Shown in pieces: positions 8,768-64,000 of a stretch of 64,000 bases of DNA (the stretch's first letter is position 1; every line of letters starts with the position of its first letter). The stretch is from positions 1,871 through 65,870 of the forward strand of contig JAAWNF010000002.1 of NCBI GenBank assembly GCA_022798795.1, in the 5' to 3' direction. The stretch comes from Bacilli bacterium (GTDB lineage Bacteria; Bacillota_I; Bacilli_A; RF39; UBA660). Position numbers and translations under genes: made by a program. Under the pieces are notes generated by a model. It had not been told where the DNA came from and ran no database searches. It was given only the letters and a program-made list of their open reading frames with translations.

Positions 8768-11254
8768 TCAATCAGGTAATTCGACATTTTTCTGATTTGA
8801 CACATTTTTTTCTGGAACTATATATGTCATCACTCGTTTTGCTACCACTGTAAAACGTTCATCTTGTTCTTCATCTGTACATGTTGAAAGGGTTAAAAGA
8901 TGGTCTTTTGTTCCTACTTCAAATTCATTGGAGAAAATGGTTTTTTCTTTTATGTTATCCAAATATTCTTGGAATGACTCTTCACTATTAAAATTAATAA
9001 TATGTGCTTCTTTTGAAGAATCAAATTCATAAGCCGCAAAAATTTCATATTGATATGTGGCTTTTGGAGTAATCAGCCATATATATTTATGTTCTTCAAA
9101 ATAAGATTCTTTTCGATATTTTTTCAAAGAACCAAACATCGTATTATTTCTCATGTTATGACCATAAAGAATGGTATTATCTGAACTAAAGTCTTGATTG
9201 GCACGATAATCCACAAAAATAGAACCACTAATATTTTCTTTTTTATTATATAAATGTTTCAAATAATATTCATTATCTTCTGCTCTAGTAATTGGATAAT
9301 TAATCTCTGTGTCTTCCACTCTAATCCAAGCAACAATTTCATCATTAATTTCATATAATGGTTCAAAATCTACTTGTGGGATATCATCATTAATTGGAAA
9401 CTCTGTTCTGTTTGGGTCTGGTTTCAGGATTGGAAGTGGTTTGCTTTGTCCTACTTGATTTTGTATTTTTCCATAACTATCAGAGGCACTCCAATATTGC
9501 CAAATAACTTTTCCTAACAAGAATAGTGAAACTGAAAAAATTAAAATCAAAATACTCAGTACTACCATATAAACTTTTTGATTCGTAAGTTTATTCTTTA
9601 AAACCTTTTTTTGAATTTCCTTTGCATCCTTGATATCAAGTACTTGTGTTAAATTGAGATAGGTACTTTCATATAATTCTGGATTACTAATATAACTAAC
9701 AGAACGATATAACATCTCTAAATGATGATTAGAAAATTTCCACTGGTCAGGATTTTTAGTCAAATATTTACTAATCCTTTTTTGCTCTAATTCATACAAT
9801 CTTGCCATATAATCATTCCATTTAGAAAGAATGGTTTCTAGCTCACTATGTGTAATGATATGATTTCTAACACTTTTATTAATTTCTTTTACAAAATGTC
9901 TTTGAATAATTTTCTCTATTAATTTATCCGTTCTTGGAAGTTTTGGTCTATATTCTAATAATCCAATAAATTCTTCTGACAATTTTGATATTGTTAATGA
10001 AGTATGAAAAATTACTTGTTCATAATAACTTGCTAACATTTCATTGTCTTCATCTTCAAAAATTAATTCCAATTCAGATTCATACGCTTCTAGCAATTCT
10101 ACAATTTTCTTTTTTCTTCCATCTAATTGATACTCCAATTTTAAAAAAGGACGATTTTCTATAATTTCTGGAGATAACAAAATGGTTTGGTCAGTTAAAT
10201 CTTCTAGTGTTAAAATAAGATGATTGGAATCATTAGAAGGTGTTTCTCCTTTTATTGCATCTATAATCTGTTTTTCATAATCTTCTATAATTTCTTTATA
10301 AAGTGCTGGCGCTACTTCTTCAAAAAAGCGAAGACGGTCAATTAAACTTTGGTCTACAATCTCAGTTTCAATACTTAAATAGGAATAATTATCATAGAAG
10401 AAACTTGCACCTAATATTTCTTTTATCATGTACTGCTTTTTACTTTTAATTTCTTCATATTTATTATGAACAAAAGACTTATATTTATATCTTTTTTCAA
10501 ACAAATCAAATAAATAAGCAAAATAAAGCATATTTCCTTCTAATGTTGGCTTTATAACATTTTCATTAATATAAATATCTGGCCCTTGATAAATAAACGG
10601 TTTTTTTTCATCCAATGTTACAACATGTACATTTTCTTTCCAACCTAGTTGTCCAAGTAAATCTAAAATCAAAAAACGGAATAATTCAACATATATTGCA
10701 GATGATAATTCTAATTCTCTATCTTTTTCAAAAATCACATAAAATAGATATCTAAGATAGTGATGTGGCATTTTTCGATTTTTGTAAATCATTAAATAAC
10801 TTAATAAATCTTTTAATTCAAAATCATTTAAAATTCTATTTTTTTTCATTTGCTTATGATAAAATCTTCCAACATCATCTGCTGCTTCTTCAAAATGAAT
10901 ATCCTTTAAAAATTTTTGAAAAAGTTCTAATTCTTTTGGATACTTTTTCGATAATTCTAATAAATTTCTGCATGCAGCATTTTCATAAAATTGAAAAGGA
11001 TTTTCACGCATTCTCTCTAAGTAAAAAGTCGTTAAAATTTTCATCGTAATTGGCAAATAACTAAAATTGTGGGTTTTCTTCATAATAAAAACAGTACTAT
11101 TTAATAAACGCTCAAATTCATTTAAATAATATTGCTTAGAAAGACCATCACCCAAAAAAGAACAATTATCGTCTGCATTTAATAATTGTTTACACAACGC
11201 TTGGTCATCCAATATATGAATTAATTGTTCTATTGTAGTTTTCCCCTTTTTCAT
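8768..11254 (-). CDS. Fusion protein. A roughly 555-aa N-terminal cytoplasmic domain of unknown function is followed by a TM helix and a C-terminal sortase B-like transpeptidase domain.
   Basis: The C-terminal approx. 230 aa contains the sortase catalytic signatures LYGHN and TLSTC. A single TM (VYMVVLSILILIFSVSLFLLG) precedes it. I recognise no motif in the N-terminal half. Confidence 0.7.
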   Translation of the reverse strand: MKKGKTTIEQLIHILDDQALCKQLLNADDNCSFLGDGLSKQYYLNEFERLLNSTVFIMKKTHNFSYLPITMKILTTFYLERMRENPFQFYENAACRNLLELSKKYPKELELFQKFLKDIHFEEAADDVGRFYHKQMKKNRILNDFELKDLLSYLMIYKNRKMPHHYLRYLFYVIFEKDRELELSSAIYVELFRFLILDLLGQLGWKENVHVVTLDEKKPFIYQGPDIYINENVIKPTLEGNMLYFAYLFDLFEKRYKYKSFVHNKYEEIKSKKQYMIKEILGASFFYDNYSYLSIETEIVDQSLIDRLRFFEEVAPALYKEIIEDYEKQIIDAIKGETPSNDSNHLILTLEDLTDQTILLSPEIIENRPFLKLEYQLDGRKKKIVELLEAYESELELIFEDEDNEMLASYYEQVIFHTSLTISKLSEEFIGLLEYRPKLPRTDKLIEKIIQRHFVKEINKSVRNHIITHSELETILSKWNDYMARLYELEQKRISKYLTKNPDQWKFSNHHLEMLYRSVSYISNPELYESTYLNLTQVLDIKDAKEIQKKVLKNKLTNQKVYMVVLSILILIFSVSLFLLGKVIWQYWSASDSYGKIQNQVGQSKPLPILKPDPNRTEFPINDDIPQVDFEPLYEINDEIVAWIRVEDTEINYPITRAEDNEYYLKHLYNKKENISGSIFVDYRANQDFSSDNTILYGHNMRNNTMFGSLKKYRKESYFEEHKYIWLITPKATYQYEIFAAYEFDSSKEAHIINFNSEESFQEYLDNIKEKTIFSNEFEVGTKDHLLTLSTCTDEEQDERFTVVAKRVMTYIVPEKNVSNQKNVELPD

Positions 11255-61181: not shown

Positions 61182-62075
61182 TTAAGAATATTGTTCTAGG
61201 CTTTTTCTTAATCGTTCTATGATTTCTTTTTTTACTTCTTTTGGTTCTAGTACTTTTATATGTTCTCCAAAGGAAAGAATATATCCATAAATCCAATCAT
61301 TGTATGGAAATTCTACAGATACTAAGAAATCACCATTTTCTTTCTTTTGAATAGCTGTTTCCTCAAATTCGTCATATACTCTATATGCTAAAGTTTTATC
61401 AATTTGTAAAATCAATGTTATCATTTTGGGCGGAGCATCATGCAATTCGATTTTCATATCTATGGTCCTATCGAATGTTTCTTCTAATATCATCAATTCT
61501 TTTATTCTCATAATTTTAAAGAATCGGTAATCATTTTTATCGACATCAAAACCACATAAATACCAGGAGTTATATTTAAAGCAAAGCTTTATGGGTTCTA
61601 CTTTTCTTTTGGTACAAGTTCCATAAGAGCTAAAATAAGAGAAAGTAATTACAGATTTATAGATAATCGCTTTTTTTATCATTTCAAAGCTTTCCTGATG
61701 AGTTTTAGAATTACTCCAGATAGAAAAGTCTACATCAAACCATTCTTCTTCTGTTTTGGTAAATAGATGCTTCATTTTTTCATAGGTATCGTTATTCATG
61801 ACGTGTAGCTTATTCATACCCTGTAAGGAAAATAGAATTTGGTTCTGTTCTTCTTCTGTTAATAAAGCTTTATCAAATTTATAGTTTTCTAATAGATGGA
61901 TGCCCCCATTTTTTCCTTTGCTCATATAAATTGGAATATGAAATTCGCTTAACACTTCAATATCTCTATAAATTGTTCTAGTAGATACTTCAAAATATTC
62001 TGATAATTCTTTGGCAGTTATGGTATTATTAGAAAGTAGTAAATATAATATTCCAAATAAACGATTATTTTTCAT
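61182..62075 (-). CDS. HTH-WYL (YafY-family) transcriptional regulator
   Basis: N-terminal HTH (TAKELSEYFEVSTRTIYRDIEVL) and a WYL-like middle domain. Confidence 0.75.
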   Translation of the reverse strand: MKNNRLFGILYLLLSNNTITAKELSEYFEVSTRTIYRDIEVLSEFHIPIYMSKGKNGGIHLLENYKFDKALLTEEEQNQILFSLQGMNKLHVMNNDTYEKMKHLFTKTEEEWFDVDFSIWSNSKTHQESFEMIKKAIIYKSVITFSYFSSYGTCTKRKVEPIKLCFKYNSWYLCGFDVDKNDYRFFKIMRIKELMILEETFDRTIDMKIELHDAPPKMITLILQIDKTLAYRVYDEFEETAIQKKENGDFLVSVEFPYNDWIYGYILSFGEHIKVLEPKEVKKEIIERLRKSLEQYS

Positions 62076-62117
62076 GCTATCACCATATTCATTATATCAT
62101 CAAATGTTAAATTTCTT

Positions 62118-62150
62118 CTAGTCAGTAAAAAAGCAGATACTTTTTCTATA
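62118..62150 (-). terminator. Intrinsic terminator
   Basis: AGCAGAU...AUCUGCU hairpin plus UUUUUU on the minus strand. Confidence 0.5.
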
Positions 62151-62172
62151 TCTGCTTCTATTAAAAATCAAT

Positions 62173-62544
62173 TTATAATTGTTTTCCTATTTTTTTTAAA
62201 TATCTTTTTTCTGCATCACAAGCTTTTTGTTCACTTTCTTCAGTATGCCATTCATAGGTTCTACCTAAATAAGAATAAACTTCATAAGCATGTGTATATT
62301 CGTGAATGTTAACACATAAAGATTTCACATCATAAATAATTGGAATAACCATTCTAATATCTATTAAAGTTCCATTTTCTCCTATCATTGGAAATACTCC
62401 CCATTCAAAATCTTCAACTGATAGTGGTAATCTTTTGATTTTTCCTTTCATAAAGGTAAAAAACTCTTGGTTTTTAATTCCTTCTTCTTCTAAAACGGCA
62501 TTTAATTCTTTTTGCCAATCTTTTATATTTGTTTTGTCTAGCAT
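62173..62544 (-). CDS. Hypothetical small protein with an HExxH-like motif (IHEYTHAYE)
   Basis: The probable start MLDKTNIK lies 4 nt downstream of the zinc-ribbon gene stop. Confidence 0.4.
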   Translation of the reverse strand: MLDKTNIKDWQKELNAVLEEEGIKNQEFFTFMKGKIKRLPLSVEDFEWGVFPMIGENGTLIDIRMVIPIIYDVKSLCVNIHEYTHAYEVYSYLGRTYEWHTEESEQKACDAEKRYLKKIGKQL

Positions 62545-62548
62545 ATTC

Positions 62549-62881
62549 CTATTTTTCTGTACAATGACATTCTGGATTGGTGCAAGTACAATTTGGATTA
62601 TATCCACTAGCACATTCCTCTGTACAAGTACATTTCCATCTTTTTAAAGTAGGGAACAGTTTTTCACAGTATTTTTTCATTTCTTCATTGGTCATTCCTG
62701 CTTGCTCTCCATATTTTGAACACATAAGAATATATTCTTCCATTGAAACTTTATCTATAAATTCCCCTTTTTCAAAGCAAAATTTACAGTAATCTATATT
62801 GATACTTCCATCTTTATTTCTACCCAATTGTTCCTTTGATTCTATAGGCATTCCGCAACTTTGACATATTTTATACTCCAT
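62549..62881 (-). CDS. Putative zinc-ribbon domain protein with a Cys-rich C-terminal tail
   Basis: N-terminus MEYKICQSCGMPI...DYCKFCF...LKRW. C-terminal CTCTEECASGYNPNCTCTNPECHCTEK. Confidence 0.65.
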   Translation of the reverse strand: MEYKICQSCGMPIESKEQLGRNKDGSINIDYCKFCFEKGEFIDKVSMEEYILMCSKYGEQAGMTNEEMKKYCEKLFPTLKRWKCTCTEECASGYNPNCTCTNPECHCTEK

Positions 62882-62915
62882 TTTATTTCTCCTTTTACTG
62901 TTTGGTTTTTACAAA

Positions 62916-63245
62916 TTAACGACAATTTTGATGTCTATTATGTCCACCATTATGATGTCCTCCACCATGGTATTGATATCCATTAGATTGATACCCCTGA
63001 TGATTTGTTTGATTACAGTCTGGATAATTGCAATTAGAGTGGTACTCTGTGTGATTTGTTTGATTGCAATTTGGATAGTTACAATTCGCATGATATTCTT
63101 CATGATGATAAGTGTTATTATAAACTTCTTCTTATTCTACACTTGCATTTTCTACTCTTCTAGGACAATCTTGTATATATGCATATACTCTTTCTGCTCC
63201 AAAAATAAGAGAAAGAGCTCCTACTACAAATAAAATCTTTTTCAT
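62916..63245 (-). pseudogene. Secreted His/Cys/Asn-rich tandem-repeat peptide interrupted by a single in-frame TAA (63132-63134). A pseudogene, a sequencing error, or a readthrough candidate.
   Basis: I verified the frame codon by codon. It reads MKKILFVVGALSLIFGAERVYAYIQDCPRRVENASVE-TAA-EEVYNNTYHHEEYHANCNYPNCNQTNHTEYHSNCNYPDCNQTNHQGYQSNGYQYHGGGHHNGGHNRHQNCR*. Two roughly 17-aa repeats correspond to about 50-nt tandem DNA repeats. Confidence 0.5.
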
Positions 63246-63328
63246 ATTCTCCCTCCAATTCATTTAACTACTAATAGTATATCATATTATGAAAAATGTT
63301 TGCATAGTATAAAGCTATTATTTTCAAA

Positions 63329-63967
63329 TTAACATAAAAATTCTTCTACACATTTTTGAATTTTATCCAATTCATATCCATAAGCTTGACAGGTCTTCCA
63401 ACCATATTCTTTGGCCATTAGAATATTATTCGTGTCATCATCAATCAACAATATATTTTCAGGTAAAATATTTAAATCTTTTAATACATATTCATAAACT
63501 CTCTTATCTGGTTTTCTTAAACCTATCTCAAAAGATAAATAAACATAATCAAATTTACTCAAATCATATTGCATATCAATTCTTTTTTTATCAAAGGGAG
63601 TTAAATTGGATAGAATTGCGATTTTACACTTTTCTTTTAATGAGTGAGCATAGGCAACCACATCTTTATAATATTTTACAACTGATAATTCTTCTTCATA
63701 TACTCTTTTAAATTCATCAAATGGAATCTCAATTCCCATATTTTGTTGAACTAAATTTACCCAATCTTTGATATCTTCTATATTGTTAGAAGCACCTATT
63801 GCAATCCCTTTTGACGTTTTGTCTGTCCACCTATCTAATACTTCTTTATCTGTTAATGAACCATTAAAGCGTTTAATTACTCTTACCTTTGCTTCTTTTA
63901 AGTCTTTCCAATCATTCTCATGACTTTCTACAATTCCACCCCAATCAAAAATAATTACTTTATTCAT
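63329..63967 (-). CDS. HAD-family hydrolase
   Basis: Motif I IIFDWGGIV and motif IV LIDDDTNN. AAGGAGA SD before MNKVIIF. Confidence 0.65.
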   Translation of the reverse strand: MNKVIIFDWGGIVESHENDWKDLKEAKVRVIKRFNGSLTDKEVLDRWTDKTSKGIAIGASNNIEDIKDWVNLVQQNMGIEIPFDEFKRVYEEELSVVKYYKDVVAYAHSLKEKCKIAILSNLTPFDKKRIDMQYDLSKFDYVYLSFEIGLRKPDKRVYEYVLKDLNILPENILLIDDDTNNILMAKEYGWKTCQAYGYELDKIQKCVEEFLC

Positions 63968-64000
63968 ACAATCTATCTCCTTATATAAAAACATTATATT

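Follow-up and report, generated by a model that had tools for sequence, protein, structure and literature searches.

Why is an otherwise open frame for a small exported protein interrupted by a single in-frame TAA, and what does this interruption mean for the gene? The frame lies in the window, i.e., the whole 64,000-nt stretch of DNA analysed here, which has a G+C content of 28.7% and carries 50 of its 57 open reading frames (ORFs) of at least 120 aa on the minus strand. Among the products encoded in the window are pheT, formate-tetrahydrofolate ligase and a protein with a class B sortase domain. PG_binding_1 and LysM proteins are encoded at related loci, and related MAGs are labelled 'uncultured Tenericutes bacterium'. 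Despite this label, the sortase in the window and the PG_binding_1 and LysM proteins in the related loci indicate that the organism is walled. The window is chromosomal DNA of a walled, low-GC, Bacillota-like bacterium. The name of one related contig (XIAO15-1_SAMEA3134420) may point to the mouse gut as its source. In the 828-aa ORF concerned (window 8768-11254, minus strand), the class B sortase domain covers only residues 564-803, with a long unassigned N-terminal region before it.

The peptide gene has a frame of 110 codons on the minus strand, running from 63245 to 62916 and broken by one TAA. Translation of the minus strand from 63263 to 62910 gives MNWRENMKKILFVVGALSLIFGAERVYAYIQDCPRRVENASVE, a stop, EEVYNNTYHHEEYHANCNYPNCNQTNHTEYHSNCNYPDCNQTNHQGYQSNGYQYHGGGHHNGGHNRHQNCR and a second stop, and thereby bears out the description in an earlier note of a 110-codon frame with a signal peptide, two 17-aa repeats and a His/Gly tail. 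The features of the locus are the following.

63276..63284, minus strand: extended -10-like element TG-n-TATACT, upstream of the peptide gene
63251..63256, minus strand: ribosome-binding site GGAGGG, 5 nt 5' of the ATG at 63245, read directly
63245-63243, minus strand: likely start codon ATG, with a product that begins MKKIL
63180..63245, minus strand: codons 1-22, Sec-type signal peptide MKKILFVVGALSLIFGAERVYA, assigned by inspection
63135..63179, minus strand: codons 23-37, remaining mature part YIQDCPRRVENASVE, from translation and family alignment
63132..63134, minus strand: codon 38, premature TAA, from CAA via C>T at 63134; the DNA spanning it is GTAGAATAAGAAGAA
62919..63131, minus strand: codons 39-109, now untranslated, with the YNNTYHHEEYH motif; from translation, and homologous to the C-terminal parts of relatives
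63048-63098 and 62997-63047, minus strand: two 17-aa H-x2-C-x4-C-x4-H repeats
62919-62996, minus strand: His/Gly/Asn tail HQGYQSNGYQYHGGGHHNGGHNRHQNCR
62916..62918, minus strand: original stop codon TAA of the 109-aa ORF, identical in all intact alleles
62549..62881, minus strand: Zn_ribbon_2 (PF12674) gene of 110 aa (Pfam E=5.5e-26), intact in the window

The GGAGGG sequence favors the MKKIL start over an upstream ATG at 63263, and no called-gene record was found for a 43-aa form beginning MNWRENM. The sequence ATATGnTATACTAT is present 25-35 nt 5' of the ATG in 8/8 family loci compared, where the remaining upstream DNA is unconserved, and this conservation points to a putative extended -10 promoter of the peptide gene. 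A generic promoter scan stayed at chance level (16 found vs. 13.4 expected), and a terminator scan of 62100-64000 found none.

Beyond the premature stop, the frame is rich in a few residues: the 71 residues comprise 15 N, 11 H, 9 Y, 7 G, 6 Q and 5 C. The two repeats, EYHANCNYPNCNQTNHT (residues 50-66) and EYHSNCNYPDCNQTNHQ (residues 67-83), are near-identical, as claimed earlier, with 14/17 residues shared; the DNA that encodes them is a 51-nt direct repeat with 76% identity. From base composition, 0.093 stops per codon are expected, and a run of 71 open codons then has a probability of ~0.001. Hence, the open stretch after the stop is not due to chance. It is homologous to the C-terminal parts of the proteins P0001, P0002, P0005 and P0011 and shows no further damage as compared with intact alleles. 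The observation that no start codon follows the stop was also correct. In the absence of any in-frame ATG, GTG or TTG, the downstream part cannot be translated separately.

The relatives just mentioned belong to a family that is very rare and unnamed. A protein search yielded two homologues with an uninterrupted frame, P0001 (113 aa) and P0002 (93 aa), with E=1.8e-18 and 1.2e-14, respectively, in single-sequence searches and E=7.8e-51 and 7.1e-37 with a profile. An exhaustive HMMER profile search among 1.84 billion (1.84e9) cluster representatives retrieved eight proteins with E<=0.001, i.e., P0001, P0002, P0005, P0007, P0009, P0010, P0011 and P0015, to which cluster look-ups added a few variants. 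No name for family members is given by any source searched. A signal peptide, a Cys-containing core and a His-rich tail are common to all eight. At the N terminus, MKK is followed by a hydrophobic core and (E/G)x-VYA, and most members contain YxQ(D/N)CP(R/K). Then follow a variable linker, the motif Y-x-N-x-Y-H-H-E-E-Y-H in the closer members, one or two Cys-pair units flanked by His, and a His-rich end, from which pattern the distant members deviate partly. The protein of the window shares with the P0001-type proteins the VYA-Y signal end, Y-I-Q-D-C-P-R-R, YNNTYHHEEYH, the His-flanked Cys pairs and the His-rich C terminus, and the genes for P0001 and P0002 have the same chromosomal position as the window gene. 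It differs in that the window copy is cut by a TAA at codon 38, and members have either one or two repeat units. Across the family, the ORF is kept at full length together with its His-rich tail; the contrary pattern considered in the earlier note, i.e., a 37-aa ORF conserved alone with repeats that decay in relatives, is not observed.

The origin of the stop codon can be read from close relatives. An intact orthologue, which the earlier note had proposed to seek in other strains, is present in 12 contigs of the species-level clade of the window (L009-L011, L014, L015, L017, L019, L030, L033, L035-L037), all with a full 109-aa ORF and CAA at codon 38. Where the window reads GAA-TAA-GAA-GAA, four of these contigs (L014, L015, L017 and L019) read GAA-CAA-GAA-GAA. 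The sequence is GAA-CAA-GGA-GAA in L009 and L010, two GTDB MAGs that were found by a scan of one genome per species and have 98.5% and 97.7% nucleotide identity to the window over 4-4.6 kb, and L011 also has CAA-GGA. Position 63134 is the sole difference between the window and L015 and L017 over 1377 and 1292 nt, respectively, and L014 shows one more difference within 1377 nt. Since the otherwise identical L015 and L017 have CAA, the codon that preceded the TAA was CAA (Gln38), altered by one C>T transition, and not GAA. Thus, of the earlier proposal that a GAA had been mutated, the single in-frame TAA at 63132-63134 stands, but the ancestor in L014, L015 and L017 is CAA; the accompanying idea of a fresh nonsense mutation agrees with the presence of TAA and CAA in near-identical contigs.

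All intact alleles are found in the same position, after a gene for an HAD hydrolase and before the Zn_ribbon_2, WYL and GyrI-like genes. The clade contigs were recovered via exact matches to the HAD, Zn_ribbon_2 and WYL proteins of the window and to the 37-aa product. Because of this mode of retrieval, the allele frequencies are not population estimates, and the query genes could not show disruptions themselves. The intact 109/115-aa sequences were not found in the protein collection, and the alleles were recovered through the neighboring genes; exact-pattern and protein-pattern scans of metagenome_contigs gave no match. One of the intact alleles (L030 941-1288, NCBI GCA_949745785.1) carries the substitution Y23C at the predicted cleavage site, i.e., VYA-C instead of VYA-Y.

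The TAA allele is carried by the window, L012 and L013. The 37-aa cut product is recorded as a called gene in the Logan assemblies L012 (SRR11195281) and L013 (ERR13867518), which match the window with 100% identity over 1760 and 975 nt, respectively. As another contig of SRR11195281, L034, is identical to the window over 3580 nt, the strain of the window was present in that sample. The window may itself derive from SRR11195281, in which case only ERR13867518 provides independent confirmation; at least one other run, unrelated to that sample, thus has the T. No substitutions have occurred in the lineage of the window since the TAA arose. The TAA is therefore a real allele and very recent, given a background that is otherwise identical and without secondary decay, and it segregates in the population beside intact alleles. 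Taken together, the locus is an ordinary young nonsense (pseudogene) allele, which is present in some strains of this gut bacterium and absent in others.

Two other explanations would leave the gene functional. If the stop were a sequencing or assembly error, the true sequence would be CAA and the gene intact, and it fits such an error that a single base separates the window from L015 and L017, which otherwise have the same sequence. However, the same T is found in the otherwise identical, separately assembled contigs L012 and L013, and its occurrence in assemblies from two different runs makes a sequencing error very unlikely; moreover, the substitution is located outside any homopolymer, which is atypical of errors. 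The error alternative offered in the earlier note is consequently hardly credible. The other explanation is programmed readthrough or recoding, with the TAA decoded, e.g., as Gln and the full-length protein possibly produced as a minor isoform. The ancestral residue is indeed Gln in both lineages that bear an in-frame TAA, i.e., that of the window and that of P0006 (see below), and the frame downstream of the stop is undamaged. Near-cognate misreading of UAA commonly inserts Gln, and since the lost residue is Gln, any basal misreading of UAA would recreate the wild-type protein. Nothing suggests, however, that misreading at the peptide gene exceeds the background. The stop is absent from 12/12 intact clade contigs and from every family lineage other than P0006, and is therefore not a conserved signal; TAA is the commonest terminator in the window, where it ends 30 of the 57 ORFs of at least 120 aa and also the peptide gene. 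On the basis of this stop-codon usage, a reassignment of TAA was rejected. No tRNA gene was detected in the window with ARAGORN, and there was no Rfam match at 62000-64000, hence no riboswitch or recoding element.

A survey of prokaryotic genes reported that short-lived in-frame stops are widespread, and it was argued that many genes with such stops are functional via readthrough (Belinky et al., 2021; PMC7918605). The present case resembles those in having a single in-frame stop in a gene that is otherwise undamaged and in the presence of the stop in some close relatives only. It differs in that the stop is TAA, whereas TGA, not TAA, was named as the leaky terminator (PMC7918605), and in that recentness alone explains the undamaged downstream frame. 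With regard to purifying selection on the part beyond the stop, one synonymous and five non-synonymous changes are found there between P0006 and P0011 vs. six and six upstream, but these are few changes. Overall, readthrough is most improbable, in line with its dismissal as unlikely in the earlier note. Phase variation of a contingency gene was also considered and rejected, as the change is a base substitution and no simple-sequence tract is present at the stop. The only repeat reported by TRF, with a 15-nt unit in 1.9 copies, is located at 62936-62964 and thus well away from the stop.

What the intact gene encodes can be described from the restored frame. The precursor consists of 109 aa and the mature form of ~87 aa, which is rich in Asn, His, Tyr, Gln, Gly and Cys and probably disordered. 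The N-terminal sequence shows an MKK n-region, a 13-residue hydrophobic core ILFVVGALSLIFG with a mean Kyte-Doolittle value of 2.66, and V-Y-A at -3 to -1. By inspection, the peptide is predicted to be secreted via the Sec system with processing by SPase I, and this signal pattern is conserved in all family members. An AF2 model of the homologue P0001, based on a family alignment of 12 rows, contains a helix at residues 2-21 only; the rest has a pLDDT<50 and the mean pLDDT is 45. This model is compatible with a signal peptide ahead of a chain that is disordered or folds only with a bound ligand, but the shallow alignment would also result in low confidence. Searches with the restored peptide gave no match better than E=0.32 in Pfam, E=0.14 in NCBIfam and E=0.28 in PDB. 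Several classes of proteins were considered and dropped. A lipobox has the consensus [LVI][ASTVI][GAS]C, in which an Asp at -1 does not fit; the residues preceding Cys27 are I-Q-D, and the protein is not a lipoprotein. A RiPP precursor was rejected as no genes for a modifying enzyme, protease or transporter adjoin the gene. The idea that even numbers of cysteines point to disulfide bonds was abandoned as P0008 and P0010 have odd numbers.

The composition is metal-binding-like, as the 71-residue stretch past the stop contains 11 His and 5 Cys. Tentatively, the intact protein may bind divalent metals extracellularly via the H-x2-C-x4-C-x4-H units and the His-rich tail, a proposal that we consider somewhat less likely than not. 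It recalls SmbP, a small, exported, His-rich repeat protein thought to bind divalent metals outside the cytoplasm. However, no sequence relationship was detected, and SmbP lacks Cys pairs and stems from a Gram-negative periplasm; the resemblance is limited to composition and location. Hpn and Hpn-like are His/Cys/Gln-rich nickel-storage proteins of Helicobacter pylori. Like these and the bacterial metallothioneins, the peptide is a small low-complexity protein rich in His, Cys, Gln and Asn with short Cys motifs, but Hpn, Hpn-like and the metallothioneins are cytoplasmic and have no signal peptide, and no homology emerged from the Pfam, NCBIfam and PDB searches.

In the window, the gene for the Zn_ribbon_2 protein starts 34 nt past the stop codon of the peptide gene. 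It is found directly downstream, at distances of 26-41 nt, in 4/7 sampled lineages, i.e., the window clade and those of P0002, P0005 and P0007; the contigs that show this adjacency are the window, L007, L020 and L022. In the window clade, the Zn_ribbon_2 protein ends in the Cys-rich tail CTCTEECASGYNPNCTCTNPECHCTEK. This Cys-rich C-terminal extension, KCTCTEECASGYNPNCTCTNPECHCTEK (window 62549-62630), is additional to the Pfam domain; in L022, the homologue ends immediately ahead of it, and the one in L020 begins the same tail. No paper on PF12674 was found in a literature search. Judged by composition, a metal-related role for the pair formed by the peptide and the Zn_ribbon_2 protein is plausible. 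The neighborhood comprises the HAD hydrolase, the Zn_ribbon_2 protein, a small protein, the WYL regulator and the GyrI-like protein, and the order in L001 is as in the window, with the HAD hydrolase upstream and the WYL and GyrI-like genes downstream of the peptide gene. The HAD hydrolase, WYL regulator, GyrI-like and acetyltransferase neighbors are not metal-related. The small ORF after the Zn_ribbon_2 gene (window 62173-62613, minus strand; probable true start at 62544) has an HExxH-like motif (NIHEYTHAYE) and no match in Pfam or NCBIfam. It is called as 123, 139 or 144 aa in different contigs; the longer calls overlap the Cys-rich tail of Zn_ribbon_2 by ~59 nt and are probably over-extended.

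The premature stop is not the only lesion in this gene pair. Besides the Gln38 stop in the window, L012 and L013, an IS3-family element with an HTH_Tnp_1 ORF and an rve ORF replaces the 5' part of the peptide gene in L028, L029 and L031. The junction (...TGTTGACAATCCA followed by CATCAGGGG) corresponds to window 63002, and the element, at 430-1573 in L028, abuts codon 82. A DUF1016 gene is located on its other side, so that neither the HAD gene nor the 5' part of the peptide gene is found here. The window does not contain the element of L028. As L028, L029 and L031 have consecutive ENA accessions, they may represent a single strain. In L014 (SRR27313114; 1936-2115), the peptide gene is intact and the Zn_ribbon_2 gene carries a stop at Gln60 due to a CAA>TAA change at window 62704, which is the one additional difference from the window mentioned above. 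In L036 (SRR30808301), a one-base deletion at about 1290-1300, equivalent to window about 62760, changes GGGGAA to GGGGA (AAAAAGGGGAATTT to AAAAAGGGGATTT) and causes a -1 frameshift in Zn_ribbon_2, of which only a 64-aa C-terminal fragment is called. Finally, the P0006 lineage (73 aa, seven contigs) has its own in-frame TAA (L024 codon 74), beyond which the frame is open for 39 more codons that specify YNNTYHHEEY and a His-rich tail; in the sister P0011 (113 aa), the corresponding codon is CAA. The loci of the P0006/P0011 lineage are L023-L026 (e.g., L024 1532-1873) and L027 (3001-3342). Wherever a contig spans the GyrI-like and acetyltransferase neighbors completely, these genes are called at full length. 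Thus, the peptide gene and the Zn_ribbon_2 gene have been disrupted several independent times, and the TAA is one of these events, although the sample is small and was retrieved by exact protein matches, and the count of independent events is a minimum-assumption estimate. The repeated disruption suggests that the pair is dispensable or counter-selected in some settings.

Whether the losses are selected bears on how the TAA should be viewed, as it would in that case belong to a set of adaptive loss-of-function alleles that arose in parallel and would not reflect neutral decay. Four independent disruptions hit two adjacent genes, together ~660 nt, in one species-level clade and a fifth occurred in a sister lineage; the GyrI-like and acetyltransferase neighbors are intact wherever covered. 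Moreover, the only two SNPs of the near-identical contigs inside the pair are both nonsense mutations. Only ~6% of random point changes in the peptide gene (0.53 of 9 per codon) are expected to be nonsense, and two of two are therefore unlikely by chance (~0.004). On the other hand, the events are few and the sampling was ascertained through exact protein look-ups, relaxed selection on an accessory gene that the cell can do without leads to an identical pattern, and the peptide gene is only moderately nonsense-prone, ranking 5 of 57 ORFs with eight sites in 109 codons where a GC>AT transition creates a stop. Selected inactivation is thus possible but unlikely. The three nonsense mutations also share a sequence context, i.e., GAA[C>T]AAG in the window, GAG[C>T]AAG in Zn_ribbon_2 of L014 and GAG/GAA[C>T]AAG between P0006 and P0011, as if the C in GAR-CAA-G were unusually mutable, e.g., by deamination of methylated cytosine. 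About 1/8, 1/3 and 1/6 of the Gln codons of the respective genes are in this context, giving a post-hoc probability of ~0.007. However, this pattern was noticed after the fact, and when the window was compared with four related contigs, 0/154 other SNP positions represented a C/T change before AAG. Such a hotspot is very unlikely and not supported; the shared context is an unexplained coincidence.

With these alternatives weighed, the locus is very probably a small chromosomal gene for an exported His/Cys/Asn-rich protein that is inactivated here by a recent CAA>TAA mutation of Gln38. The C>T transition turned Gln38 (CAA) into TAA, and translation ends after 37 codons. After signal cleavage, at most the 15-residue YIQDCPRRVENASVE would be exported, and the Cys/His repeats and the His-rich tail are lost. 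The TAA allele would then represent a loss of function. The remaining 15-aa peptide includes Y-I-Q-D-C-P-R-R, the best conserved motif of the family, and for that reason might still be active. The knock-outs may recur because the pair is not needed, or is costly, under certain conditions or in certain hosts. A bolder and doubtful option is that the peptide and the Zn_ribbon_2 protein work as a pair and are turned off time and again in natural gut populations, with the TAA as an adaptive presence/absence state and maybe a knock-down. If true, rare misreading of UAA with insertion of Gln would regenerate the exact wild type, as both nonsense events replace Gln, and the allele could be a strong knock-down rather than a null.

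For annotation, these results mean that the locus should be marked as a nonsense-disrupted gene for a 109-aa secreted protein, and neither as a recoding site nor as a 37-aa gene with non-coding DNA behind it. The family of exported His/Cys-rich proteins to which its product belongs is uncharacterised and extremely rare, and may be linked to the Zn_ribbon_2 protein. The natural knock-outs of both genes, beside near-isogenic intact strains, offer ready material for testing the role of the pair, e.g., in extracellular metal handling in the gut.
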